Assembly (NCBI GenBank): GCA_016187385.1
Contig: JACPJU010000001.1
Location: 204,010 to 268,009, forward strand
Source: Candidatus Aenigmatarchaeota archaeon
GTDB taxonomy: Archaea > Aenigmatarchaeota > Aenigmatarchaeia > CG10238-14 > SCSR01
DNA length: 64,000 bases
Reading direction: 5' to 3'
Shown here: positions 11,093-13,738 of the stretch, one piece after another
How the letters are laid out: each line of letters begins with the position of its first letter
Position numbering within the stretch: the stretch's first letter is position 1
The notes under the pieces: model-generated
What the model was told of the DNA's origin: nothing
Seen by the model: only the letters and a program-made list of their open reading frames with translations
Databases searched by the model: none
Position numbers and translations under genes: made by a program

Positions 11093-13738
11093 ATGCCGAA
11101 TTTGACAGTCATAGTTAGGGATGAAAAGACAAGGAAACCTATAGGTAATGCGAGAGTCATATCAAAAACCGATAATAAACCTTTGAATGCGATTTGGGAT
11201 ACGACTAAACCCCCAGGAGAACAAGAAAAGGAGCCTCAATTCGGATACTATAAAGATATTTTAAGTCGCGGGGAACATGTCATTTCCGTAAAAGCAAATG
11301 GGTACAAAGACTACGAATCTGACATAATACCGCTTCTAAGTACAGACAGAACAATTCCAGTGAACCTAACACCAACCGGAGTTAGTGGATTCTTTGAACC
11401 AACCAAAAAAGCATTTGGCATAGGACCAGGCAAACTTGGAAACTGGAAACGCGGGACTTGGTCTTGGATTTTCGCTGGGGTATCGACTGTACTATACGTC
11501 CTTGCTTTTCTAAGTATCTGGACGCCGCTCGCTAGTACTATCGGTTCGCCTAGCACAATTGGTATTTTTCTTCTCGGACTTTTCACTGTTGCGTTATCTT
11601 CATATTTTGGCGCTAACCGTGTTGCAGGTGCCGTATCTGAAAATTTACCCAACGTAATAATGGGATTGATAATCACACTGCTGATGTTTTTTATAGCCAT
11701 CCTGCCGTTGATCAACACTATACCAATTATAAAGGATTCTCTTTTCTTGAAGACAGTCGCCTTCTTGACTATTTTTACTCTCGCCATGCTTTCAAGCAAA
11801 GCTAGAGGAATAGCACCTACCATAGGGCATTCACTTGTATGGAGCATTGTCGCTCTTATAGTGCTGATCGGGATAAACTTTTTCGTCAGCGGCACGGCAT
11901 TCAATATAGATTTCTACATCAATTCGCTGGATGTTCTGCGTATAATAGGACTGGACCAGAATACGATTGACGGTATGAAAGAAGGTATCAGAAAAATTAT
12001 CAGCTATCTTTTCGCGATAGGGCAGATAAAACCTGAACCAGACGCTGTGAAAATTGGTGGGTACGAGGCGATTCAGTTAAAGTTTGGAAGTAGGCATACA
12101 GATTTTGTTCCACCAAATGCATTCGCAAGACTGGACTATACGCTTCCAATTACCATAATAAATCCGAATAATGTAGAAGACTTTGTCAACCCTGTTACTG
12201 GTTTTTACGTGGACGAAATATTCATGTTCAATAGAAGCAATGAAAAGATGCTGTGCGGCGTTGTCGAAGGTGCGGGCAAGTCTGAACCGATTACCAGCAT
12301 CAAATCACAGGAAGAGAAATCGATGATTATACAATTTAAGAACAAGACCGATTGCAGAGATATTATAGCCAAATCAAGAAACATACAAGATGTGGCAACA
12401 GTCAATCCGCTATTTCCGATAAAGTTCAAACAGGATGTGAATAGTGAAAATATAACGGAAATGACAAAAACGGGGAAAGATTTCGTATGCGAAAGGGAAT
12501 GTGGTGAAACCCTTAATAATAGTAACAATCTATACGGCATCAAAAATGAACTGGACAAAAATGAAACTGCATACATAGAAAGCGAAAATAAATGTGCTTG
12601 TAAATTCCAAAAACTTTACAATTTGATGGACGACTTGTGCTTCACTGACAACAAGGCAAATATTGAGATGAGAGCCAATTATAACTTTTCAGTTGAAGGC
12701 AAGGGAGAATTGATTTTGGTCAATAAAGACAGCGACAAAAAATTCACATCAGACCCCAAGATTACAAGCAGTGCTGGTCCCCTGACGGTAACAACATACT
12801 TTTCTCCCGACATTTACAGTGCGGAAAGCGATTCGTCTAGAGGGATAACAATGTTCATCCGCATAGACAACAGCGGTGAAGGCGATGCGAAGATAACTGG
12901 ATTTGACATAAAAGATTTGGATATAGAAAACGGTTGTAGTCCCAAGCCAGTGAATTTGATTGTCAAAAAAGGCGATATTAAAGAAACTGGTATCCCGATT
13001 ACGTGCGATGCATCGGTTTTCAAAAATAGGGACATAAAAGAACCTTTCACCACCATTCCAGTGGTTGTGGACATCAATTACACATATAGCCAGACATATT
13101 CAACAGCAATAGGACTGCAAAAAGCTTCTATTCGCGGTGAGATTATAGAAGGCAGTGACGAGTACAATCGACTAGTTGAACAATATTCACCATTGCCTTA
13201 TTATTGCCCGCGCGACATGAAAGTTTACAGTGGGTGGCCTGTGACTGTGAAAGTGATACCACCTGGTTCGGGAACTACACCAACTGGTTCATGTACCCCT
13301 GTTAATAGCGGTCCCTGCAGTACTGGTGATTTGCGAAGTACATGCTTTGGTATCAATGCAATCAAAGCATCAAGTATTTGCAATATCGAAAGCAGTGGCA
13401 ATCCGACTGTTGCTAGCACAGTCGATAAATGCAAGGATGGCACATCATTTTCACACGGACTGTTTCAAATCAACATTATTGCACATGCCAATGAAATAGG
13501 CGGAGATTGTATGAATCTATTTACAATTAATGGTCCTGGAATATTAGGAACATGTCTTGAATCTGATTCAGACGGTAATTGCATAAAGCATGATTGTGAG
13601 GCTAAAGATTCTAATCAATACACAAGATGTGTTGACCGAATAAACGATGTAACCAGAAATATCCAAATTGCCTGCCAAATATCAAATAACGGTATTGATT
13701 GGAATGCATGGGGAGCCAATAAGAAATGTAACTTTTAG
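11093..13738 (+). CDS. Large membrane-anchored surface protein with a C-terminal Cys-rich lysozyme-like / lytic transglycosylase (SLT)-like domain
   Basis: 881 aa. N-terminal beta-rich domain, then a multi-helix hydrophobic block (about aa 115-290). C-terminal about 150 aa contain CNIESSGNP...GLFQIN...NNGIDWNAWGA, which fits the SLT ES...GLMQI-type pattern. Confidence 0.65.
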   Translation: MPNLTVIVRDEKTRKPIGNARVISKTDNKPLNAIWDTTKPPGEQEKEPQFGYYKDILSRGEHVISVKANGYKDYESDIIPLLSTDRTIPVNLTPTGVSGFFEPTKKAFGIGPGKLGNWKRGTWSWIFAGVSTVLYVLAFLSIWTPLASTIGSPSTIGIFLLGLFTVALSSYFGANRVAGAVSENLPNVIMGLIITLLMFFIAILPLINTIPIIKDSLFLKTVAFLTIFTLAMLSSKARGIAPTIGHSLVWSIVALIVLIGINFFVSGTAFNIDFYINSLDVLRIIGLDQNTIDGMKEGIRKIISYLFAIGQIKPEPDAVKIGGYEAIQLKFGSRHTDFVPPNAFARLDYTLPITIINPNNVEDFVNPVTGFYVDEIFMFNRSNEKMLCGVVEGAGKSEPITSIKSQEEKSMIIQFKNKTDCRDIIAKSRNIQDVATVNPLFPIKFKQDVNSENITEMTKTGKDFVCERECGETLNNSNNLYGIKNELDKNETAYIESENKCACKFQKLYNLMDDLCFTDNKANIEMRANYNFSVEGKGELILVNKDSDKKFTSDPKITSSAGPLTVTTYFSPDIYSAESDSSRGITMFIRIDNSGEGDAKITGFDIKDLDIENGCSPKPVNLIVKKGDIKETGIPITCDASVFKNRDIKEPFTTIPVVVDINYTYSQTYSTAIGLQKASIRGEIIEGSDEYNRLVEQYSPLPYYCPRDMKVYSGWPVTVKVIPPGSGTTPTGSCTPVNSGPCSTGDLRSTCFGINAIKASSICNIESSGNPTVASTVDKCKDGTSFSHGLFQINIIAHANEIGGDCMNLFTINGPGILGTCLESDSDGNCIKHDCEAKDSNQYTRCVDRINDVTRNIQIACQISNNGIDWNAWGANKKCNF

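Follow-up and report, generated by a model that had tools for sequence, protein, structure and literature searches.

In c-type lysozymes (GH22) the catalytic pair is Glu35/Asp52, while the family 1 lytic transglycosylases (GH23) carry the motifs ES, GLxQ and AYNxG. Specialised lytic transglycosylases, such as VirB1, EtgA and those of PilT loci, are encoded together with their apparatus and open the producer's own peptidoglycan. Enzymes of the lysozyme fold can also cleave chitin and other beta-1,4 glycans. In archaea, peptidoglycan hydrolases that kill bacteria have been described (Strock et al. 2025, PMC12352652), and Woesearchaeota have GH23 lytic transglycosylases (PMC9723730). The gene described here resembles these in encoding what appears to be an exported murein-type glycosidase in an archaeon presumed to lack murein, with patchy distribution and domain shuffling. 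However, the enzymes treated in the pertinent passages of the two papers are soluble or modular with cell-wall-binding domains, whereas here a polytopic membrane protein tethers the enzyme, and in relatives type IV pilin-like proteins do so. The module itself is of a CPR-type SLT_3 family, which is not among the enzymes treated in those passages.

The window is the whole 64,000-nt stretch of DNA that was analysed. The gene of interest (Table 1) encodes 881 aa, and its product is 100% identical to the NCBI entry 'hypothetical protein HYW24_01425 [Candidatus Aenigmarchaeota archaeon]'.

Table 1. Features of the locus. Positions are those of the window; A1 is the 36-sequence alignment of the lysozyme-like module, and L001 to L009 are the relative loci.
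Feature	Position	Strand	Remarks
Whole gene	11093..13738	+	Polytopic membrane protein of a family so far restricted, it appears, to Aenigmarchaeota, with an added lysozyme-like C-terminus
N-terminal domain, ~120 aa, predicted cytoplasmic	11093..11452	+	Putative CarboxypepD_reg/PEGA-type beta-sandwich, via orthologues
Five-TM-helix block, predicted N-in/C-out	11471..11881	+	Hydropathy of protein and family
Conserved extracellular core domain, aa 269–712	11897..13228	+	Helical hairpin and several beta-sandwich modules; 10 Cys
Flexible Pro/Gly/Thr-rich linker, aa 713–733	13229..13291	+	VKVIPPGSGTTPTGS; low pLDDT
Lysozyme-like (Pfam SLT_3) catalytic module, aa 734–881	13292..13735	+	12 Cys; homology, alignment, model
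Glu766 codon, presumed catalytic acid	13388..13390	+	Invariant (E52 of A1); ES motif, C-terminal end of model helix 39–53
Asp778 codon, beta-hairpin region	13424..13426	+	Invariant (D64 of A1)
GLFQIN, substrate-groove strand, aa 789–794	13457..13474	+	G, L and Q invariant, N nearly invariant in A1
481-aa pilin-like protein, last operon gene, MKG and hydrophobic N-terminus	13739..15184	-	Same-position orthologue in L001–L009
720-aa pilin-like protein, inserted GH5 (cellulase-family) domain	15181..17343	-	Pfam Cellulase E 6e-14
412-aa pilin-like protein, SLT-like C-terminal domain (VESGGG aa 264, GIFQLN aa 301)	17987..19225	-	Pfam SLT E 0.032, below cut-off
Pilus machinery: 650-aa polytopic platform-like protein, 94-aa pilin, 746-aa T2SSE-family ATPase	22755..27266	-	Conserved in L003–L008

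The sequence-only reading had placed an SLT-like domain at the C-terminus of this protein, and homology bears it out. IESSGNP (aa 765–771, nt 13385–13405), GLFQIN and NNGIDWNAWGA (aa 865–875, nt 13685–13717) lie where they had been reported. When the C-terminal 164 aa were used by themselves, a word-indexed homology search gave no matches, missing even the parent protein, so that an exhaustive HMMER search was needed. At E ≤ 1e-3 this returned 550 proteins; more than 120 of the best 150 matches covered only aa ~720–881 (E 2e-41 to 6e-16, ~40–55% identity). The domain alone matched Pfam SLT_3 (PF18896) with 31.2 bits (E 3.2e-7), above the gathering threshold of 27 bits; the whole 881-aa protein scored 25.5 bits, slightly below this cut-off. 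SLT_3 was matched by 33 of the 36 aligned relatives, and precomputed PF18896 and PF18895 annotations are present on several HMMER-matched proteins. E766, D778, C780, G789, L790, Q792, W873 and C879 are invariant in A1, and the agreement in motifs is far beyond chance. The module has two lobes, with the catalytic Glu ending an N-lobe helix as in the lysozyme-like superfamily, and its fold is lysozyme/SLT-like. Judged from these conserved residues, an active muramidase or lytic transglycosylase is the most likely reading, and Asp778 is possibly a second catalytic or substrate-positioning residue.

The module belongs to neither of the classical families. Its link to the c-type lysozymes (GH22; Bombyx mori lysozyme 1gd6 and hen egg-white lysozyme, HEWL) is structural only, since the domain family gave no significant hhalign match to HEWL (E 0.16). 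The position of Asp52 is taken by Ser787, a nearly invariant residue two before the GLFQ glycine, in a register set by eye and not by superposition. GH22 membership was rejected on both grounds. The module further differs from c-type lysozyme in the extra invariant Asp778 and, in the model, in three to four beta-strands that are inserted where the lobes join. With Ser787 at the Asp52 position, the module could be a hydrolase or a lytic transglycosylase, and its peptidoglycan activity is putative. Membership of GH23 was likewise rejected: Pfam SLT (PF01464) gave no match in the window domain and weak ones in 5 of the 36 relatives (best E 5.5e-4), and A1, which contains ES and GLFQ, has no AYNxG-like third motif. 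From Slt70, MltE, MltC and EtgA/VirB1 the window module differs in these two points and in having, presumably, no wall of its own cell to open.

The 412-aa protein was said to carry a domain of the same arrangement. This held for the catalytic N-lobe: the two domains gave a BLASTP E of 0.002, and hhalign of the 412-aa domain to A1 gave 89.8% probability and an E of 1.8e-6 over 37 columns, a significant similarity but confined to ES...CKDG...G[LI]FQ[IL]N. The C-terminal halves gave no alignment. Because of this, the weak SLT match of the 412-aa protein and the failure of Pfam SLT_3 to match it, the two SLT-like domains of the window are of different subfamilies, with the catalytic N-lobe alone in common.

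Hydropathy of the protein and its family gave five conserved hydrophobic segments (aa ~127–143, 159–171, 190–207, 223–230 and 246–263) instead of the six or so TM helices first counted. The N-terminal domain, read as PEGA-like from the sequence alone, had no Pfam match in the window protein; in orthologues it matched CarboxypepD_reg strongly (L002, E 5e-23; L005, E 3e-29) and PEGA weakly. No signal peptide was found in the 881-aa protein. Archaeal class III signal peptides consist of a short charged N-terminus ending in K/R-G/A and a hydrophobic helix of ~20 aa. This protein begins MPNLTVIVRDEK, has its first hydrophobic segment at aa ~123, and is therefore not a type IV pilin by that definition. 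No NCBIfam model matches it, and for its outer domain, a beta-sandwich of roughly 440 aa, there is no specific relative known. PDB sequence matches to a TAL effector (spurious) and to pancreatic RNase A (E ~0.02, driven by the Cys pattern) were rejected as chance.

Topology was assessed from hydropathy, charge and Cys statistics. Averaged over 17 homologues, K/R are enriched before TM1 and in loops 2–3 and 4–5. All 22 Cys of the protein follow the last TM helix, and the N-terminal domain is Cys-free. The number of Cys after the last TM helix is even (10–30) in 23 of 23 family members for which the TM prediction was usable (3 others, short or fragmentary, could not be scored), and nearly all members have 0–2 Cys before TM1. 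These patterns strongly suggest that the N-terminus is inside and the C-terminus outside, so that the lysozyme-like domain would face the cell exterior and not the cytoplasm.

The gene is convergent to the minus-strand pilus operon, as had been noted. Its stop codon (TAG, 13736–13738) directly abuts the operon stop at 13739–13741, but the genes meet tail-to-tail, and the partner is the last gene of the operon, not a first gene met head-to-tail. Its neighbours begin with MKG and a hydrophobic segment. The ATPase matched PF00437 at E 1e-16, while the 650-aa protein had no Pfam match and would fit a platform role by position and TM content. An M23 peptidase proposed at aa 120–300 of the 720-aa neighbour, from a GHTHIQI motif, was dropped as it had no Pfam or PDB support. 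In each of the nine relative loci an orthologue of the 881-aa protein converges on the same end of the operon, and 9 loci have the same order of genes, with 35–42% protein identity. The pimt and alba genes on the flanks are likewise conserved across loci; as these are housekeeping genes, the synteny may in part be plain gene-order conservation. A functional link of the 881-aa protein to the pilus locus is plausible, given the convergent position in 9/9 loci and the module on operon pilins in L002 and L009. This much of the earlier proposal of a pilus partner stands, while its anchoring or pore role is not supported.

The core family consists of 26 representatives, the window protein and 25 others, most of the latter at E 1e-148 to 4e-38 and the weakest (P0057, P0144 and P0145) at E ~1e-22 to 4e-16. 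Alignment A2 of this five-TM/ectodomain family has 44 invariant columns. The window protein shares with the family homology over the TM block and the ~440-aa ectodomain, as well as the position convergent to the pilus operon. All 8 genome loci are from Aenigmatarchaeota or uncultured-archaeon MAGs, and from the relatives found the family appears so far to be restricted to Aenigmarchaeota. The lysozyme module is present in just 3 of the 26 representatives, and the closest homologue found first (P0002) is without it. The module does not define the family; it is an optional accessory.

Its location also varies. It lies at the core C-terminus in the window and in L002, inside the 720-aa orthologue in L002, and at the C-terminus of the 412-aa orthologue in L009 and P0037. 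The 720-aa orthologues have 142–249 aa without insert, 685 aa with SLT_3 (L002) or 529 aa with GH5 (L009), and the 412-aa orthologues have 121–126 aa unless they carry SLT_3 (L009 and P0037) or LysM (L002). In 6 of 9 loci no enzyme module of SLT_3, GH5 or LysM type was recognised on the family or operon proteins examined, Pfam having been run at relative loci on selected L002, L005 and L009 proteins. In L009 the orthologue has an additional C-terminal tail whose motif LWGEESGFS suggested another lysozyme, at most a putative one, as the tail had no Pfam match and no similarity to the A1 family.

Among the more than 120 other carriers listed, most have either a signal peptide of bacterial type or a Patescibacteria-type VirB2-like pilin domain, the bacterial relatives being fusions of T4SS_pilin (PF18895) and SLT_3. 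One of these is named Cand. Paceibacterota and lies in an array of VirB2-like pilins; another is encoded on a 949-kb bacterial contig, beside the gene of an M23 peptidase. The SLT_3 modules of Patescibacteria/CPR VirB2-like T4SS pilins resemble the window module in sequence (40–55% identity), in the invariant E, D, GLFQ and W, in a pattern of ~10–12 Cys, and in forming the very C-terminal end of a carrier that is anchored in the membrane. The carriers differ, as that of the window is an archaeal five-TM protein whose large ectodomain is of beta-sandwich type and whose gene adjoins a type IV pilus operon and not a T4SS, in a cell where no murein wall is expected. The archaeal modules formed an exclusive clade in one BLOSUM62-distance NJ tree, but in only 1 of 100 bootstrap replicates (Kimura distances, 80 taxa), and a single transfer is therefore not claimed. 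Base composition gave no sign of recent transfer (GC 0.400 in the module, 0.396 in the window).

We consider it probable that the module is an optional, surface-tethered and pilus-associated enzyme directed against foreign peptidoglycan, and not a pore or anchoring component. From what is known of archaea, a member of the Aenigmarchaeota is not expected to have a peptidoglycan wall, and we assume this for the present genome. With no wall of its own expected, and with most orthologous pilus loci lacking the module, the most likely substrate is bacterial peptidoglycan. In this lineage an SLT_3 module would have been fused through a flexible linker to the C-terminus of an outward-facing, disulfide-bonded beta-sandwich ectodomain, encoded convergently to the distal (minor-pilin) end of the operon. 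The module would hold enzymatic activity at the archaeal surface, the pilus would bring a bacterium into contact, and the module could then cut the bacterial peptidoglycan, whether to attach or enter, to kill or to scavenge. On pilin-like proteins of the same operon, the SLT-like and GH5 modules may act alongside.

The neighbouring GH5 domain points to polysaccharide substrates other than peptidoglycan. The module might thus act on chitin, on surface glycans or pseudomurein of a host archaeon, or on biofilm exopolysaccharide, as part of a toolkit for degrading or scavenging surface polysaccharides. We regard this as unlikely, but it is the strongest of the alternatives: the best structural and sequence relatives of the module are murein-specific enzymes, and in bacteria it is found on T4SS pilins and beside M23 peptidases, a peptidoglycan context.

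There is little probability that the module serves as a space-maker of the VirB1/EtgA type, cutting the cell's own wall polymer locally for pilus assembly, as the earlier pore or anchoring idea would have it. Genes of the family lie beside the apparatus in 9/9 loci, but the 6 loci without a recognised enzyme module have the full pilus operon, so the pilus does not need the module. As 23 of 26 core proteins lack it also, it is not a required anchoring or secretion-pore component, and murein is, as far as we know, not found in this archaeal group. We give as little weight to release of the module by linker cleavage, as a diffusible antibacterial lysin for which the membrane protein would be just an export vehicle. 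The linker is indeed flexible and of low confidence (pLDDT ~58–60 over the first ~20 residues of the A1 model), and archaea are documented to secrete peptidoglycan hydrolases that kill bacteria (PMC12352652), but there is no recognisable cleavage site. Moreover, the archaeal cases seen all have the module on a membrane-anchored or pilin-like protein and never free, which favours contact-dependent use. That the module is catalytically dead, or a glycan-binding adhesin only, in the manner of alpha-lactalbumin, is very improbable, because the catalytic Glu and a second Asp do not vary among 36 diverse relatives, as is expected where selection maintains an enzyme.

In a small archaeon of symbiotic type such as this one, a surface-tethered murein-type glycosidase tied to a pilus operon would predict contact with bacteria, beyond archaea alone, and the 148-aa module offers a concrete reagent for testing this prediction. 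That one enzyme module has moved between orthologous proteins of the pilus locus is a clear case from nature of accessory 'warheads' being swapped on a conserved scaffold, and the parallel with CPR pilin–lysozyme fusions hints at tools that are shared, and possibly exchanged, between two ultrasmall radiations. The module family is also a possible source of small disulfide-stabilised lysins. More tentatively, and with the odds against it, some Aenigmarchaeota may possess a type IV pilus armed to attack bacteria across domains or to live with them as episymbionts. A CPR-type module, perhaps acquired from CPR, would be interchangeable on minor pilins and the pilus-linked membrane protein, and the pilus would pull a bacterium onto the tethered lysozyme, breaching its wall. 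If so, the same module would decorate the non-homologous pili of two ultrasmall radiations, VirB2-type in CPR and type IV in DPANN.

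The 881-aa protein matches exactly 'hypothetical protein HYW24_01425', encoded on a 786-kb contig of a Candidatus Aenigmarchaeota MAG. Its sole Pfam match was SLT_3 (PF18896, 'lysozyme like domain'), which scored 25.5 bits on the whole protein and, with the domain taken alone, passed the 27-bit cut-off at 31.2 bits. When 1.84 billion representatives were searched exhaustively with HMMER, 550 matched at E ≤ 1e-3; of the 150 best, over 120 were confined to aa ~720–881, at 40–55% identity. When 36 sequences of this lysozyme module were aligned, E766, D778, C780, G789, L790, Q792, W873 and C879 were invariant and about 10 Cys were conserved. 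Structural relatives were EtgA (6.6), alpha-lactalbumin (6.5), Slt (6.4), DslA, MltE and MltC (6.2), phiKZ gp144 (6.1) and RpfB (5.4). The C-terminus is therefore a genuine lysozyme-fold module. The sequence-only reading had claimed such a domain at aa 732–881, in agreement with the domain boundaries, and its motifs were all located: IESSGNP (aa 765–771), GLFQIN (aa 789–794) and NNGIDWNAWGA (aa 865–875).

Among the window ORFs, the ES...G[LI]FQ pair was found in none besides the 881-aa and 412-aa proteins, whose domains had been read as arranged alike. The pairwise alignment then proposed was significant over the catalytic N-lobe: BLASTP gave a single 24-aa HSP (E 0.002), and profile comparison matched 37 columns (ES...CKDG...G[LI]FQ[IL]N; 89.8% probability, E 1.8e-6). 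The C-terminal halves did not align, and in Pfam the 412-aa domain matches classical SLT below threshold only. The two domains have the catalytic N-lobe in common but belong to separate branches of the lysozyme-like superfamily.

The HMMER matches of the 881-aa protein split into two independent families, one of module-type proteins and one of its core (the TM block plus aa ~269–712), with 26 core representatives among the matches listed. In a scan of GTDB species genomes, all that had the core were MAGs assigned to Aenigmatarchaeota or to 'uncultured archaeon'. The module is carried by 3 of the 26 (the window protein, P0003 from locus L002, and P0006), while P0002, the first homologue found, terminates shortly past the core; the module was added late and is optional. 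The 758-aa protein P0023 has no sequence relation to the core but is built along similar lines, with TM helices at the N-terminus, then a large beta-rich stretch, and SLT_3 at the C-terminus; its module is 51–56% identical to that of the window protein, as one of the latter's closest relatives.

Hydropathy gave five hydrophobic segments where about six TM helices had been proposed, and all five were kept in the averaged profile of 17 homologues. The N-terminal domain has no Pfam match in the 881-aa protein; since that of orthologues matches CarboxypepD_reg strongly and PEGA weakly, its description as PEGA-like was roughly right as a fold class. K/R residues are concentrated ahead of TM1 and in loops 2–3 and 4–5, and 22/22 Cys lie downstream of the last TM. 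Nearly all core-family members have 0–2 Cys before TM1, and an even number (10–30) follows the last TM in 23/23 members with a usable TM prediction, a count leaving out three short or fragmentary members. Some core orthologues start with a zinc-ribbon-like CxxC...HxxxH. These features indicate, from hydropathy, charge and Cys statistics rather than a dedicated predictor, an N-in, C-out topology, in which the module (12 Cys in 148 aa) would be extracellular; charge and Cys statistics do not place it in the cytoplasm.

In nine related loci, the window proteins were then mapped to ORFs from all six frames. Gene order was alike in every locus: pimt(−), alba(−), core(+), then convergent minus-strand pilus genes (pil481, pil720, p223, pil412, small pilins, pil826, platform, pilin and T2SSE ATPase, to each contig's limit). 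The 881-aa gene does not run head-to-tail into the first pilus gene, as had been read, but tail-to-tail into the last operon gene with zero intergenic bases. Its Alba and PCMT neighbours are consistent with an archaeon. Because pimt and alba are conserved too, core–pilus adjacency, taken by itself, might be no more than conservation of gene order.

Modules were assigned from this mapping, with Pfam on selected L002, L005 and L009 proteins. The window has SLT_3 on the core, GH5 on pil720 and the other SLT-like domain on pil412. In L002, SLT_3 is at the core C-terminus and also inside the pil720 orthologue (36.4 bits), with LysM on the pil412 orthologue. In L009, the core has an unrelated Cys-rich tail, the pil720 orthologue GH5 and the pil412 orthologue SLT_3 (38.5 bits). 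Six other loci have no recognised enzyme module (SLT_3-type, GH5 or LysM) on the core or on the pil720 (142–249 aa) and pil412 (121–126 aa) orthologues. P0037 is a further pil412-type pilin with SLT_3. This shifting of modules points to a common extracellular location of the core ectodomain and the minor pilins, as interchangeable platforms for wall-degrading 'warheads', and the six loci without them show that the modules are dispensable for building the pilus.

Coordinates of features in the window, related loci (L001–L009) and CPR-type bacterial loci (L010, L012)
Locus	Position	Strand	Product	Feature
Window	8723..9313	+	196-aa membrane protein	Lit, lipoprotein intramolecular transacylase (PF07314, E 5e-11)
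Window	11093..13738	+	881-aa protein	C-terminal SLT_3
Window	15181..17343	−	720-aa type IV pilin-like protein (MKGQTAF... N-terminus)	GH5 'cellulase' (Pfam E 6e-14), poly-Pro linker
Window	17987..19225	−	412-aa protein (pil412)	SLT-like domain
Window	19886..22366	−	826-aa pilin-like protein; orthologues 334–613 aa	beta/gamma-crystallin (PF00030, E 6e-6); three internal Cys-rich repeats (...LDD.GDK.GKC.F...)
Window	29185..31746	+	four consecutive multi-TM membrane proteins (167, 178, 179, 317 aa)	at least two with clearly similar N-termini; last with terminal Peptidase_S74 'chaperone of endosialidase' (E 8e-17)
L001	5470..6193	−	PIN-domain toxin, small antitoxin-like gene	between core and last pilin genes
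L002	8601..10658	−	685-aa pil720 orthologue	~360-aa domain (aa ~120–480) upstream of SLT_3, no Pfam match
L002	11248..11862	−	pil412 orthologue	C-terminal LysM (E 5e-9) in place of enzyme
L009	11460..12178		core orthologue, aa ~825–1065	no SLT_3; ~240-aa Cys-rich C-terminal tail with LWGEESGFS
L010	6646..8951		VirB2-like pilin	C-terminal SLT_3
L012	4603..8108		VirB2-like pilin	C-terminal SLT_3

The GH5 and poly-Pro of the 720-aa protein lie between an N- and a C-terminal segment which, on their own, form the 142–249-aa orthologues of other genomes; the protein is a minor pilin into which an enzyme has been grafted. The ~360-aa domain in L002 could be another enzyme or binding module, and the LysM gives the same scaffold one more module related to peptidoglycan/chitin. 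The L009 tail had neither a Pfam match nor profile similarity to the SLT_3-type family, but its LWGEESGFS resembles a further ES motif of lysozyme type. The L001 toxin insertion is the sole break of the tight convergent core/pilin junction among the loci. Elsewhere in the window, Lit is unexpected in an archaeon, as the family is otherwise known from Firmicutes; Peptidase_S74 is usually a domain of phage tail fibres and spikes.

Most non-archaeal module carriers among the matches listed have bacterial signal peptides, and many have PF18895 T4SS_pilin. One, from Candidatus Paceibacterota, lies inside an array of T4SS_pilin genes, and another, on a bacterial contig of 949 kb, comes directly after a gene for an M23 peptidase; these are the settings seen for the fusions at L010 and L012. 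For Patescibacteria, arrays of VirB2-like pilins have been described, as have lysozyme and peptidase genes that are essential and adjoin virB4 (PMC12102498). Together, these observations identify the module family as predominantly of CPR type. A VirB1 homologue is missing in most VirB2-bearing Patescibacteria (PMC12102498), and the pilin/SLT_3 fusions might fill its role. As to descent of the archaeal modules from one transfer, they formed an exclusive group in a BLOSUM62 NJ tree, but a bootstrap with Kimura distances on 80 taxa recovered that group in 1/100 replicates; the two L002 modules paired in 42/100. The GC of the module equals that of the genome.

With a Glu at the N-lobe helix end and an Asp in the beta-hairpin, both invariant, and with the GLFQIN strand, the module is predicted most likely to act as a glycosidase, its substrate being a MurNAc-GlcNAc-type glycan. 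By motif register, Ser787 stands where c-type lysozyme has Asp52, so that lytic transglycosylation or a g-type-like mechanism is just as probable as classical hydrolysis. Murein synthesis is not known from archaea, and relatives that lack the module still have a working pilus; foreign bacterial peptidoglycan, on which the module would act at the contact site, is therefore favoured as substrate. This agrees with reports of bacteria-killing archaeal peptidoglycan hydrolases (PMC12352652) and of GH23 enzymes in Woesearchaeota (PMC9723730). Action on other, non-peptidoglycan glycans is unlikely beside the predicted MurNAc-GlcNAc-type substrate. Remodelling of the cell's own wall is quite improbable in an archaeon most of whose relatives lack the module, and equally so is release as a lysin, for a module that in the archaeal cases seen is always joined to a membrane-anchored or pilin-like protein. 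With Glu and Asp invariant, a catalytically dead adhesin is scarcely credible.

The domain family (Pfam SLT_3) and peptidoglycan hydrolases in DPANN archaea were already known. The literature searched gave no description of the tethered module, its relocation or the CPR parallel. Architecture and context are what is new: a five-TM protein specific to Aenigmarchaeota bears a tethered lysozyme module of CPR type, this module changes place among the proteins of a conserved type IV pilus locus, and the pilin–lysozyme fusions of CPR bacteria offer a parallel.
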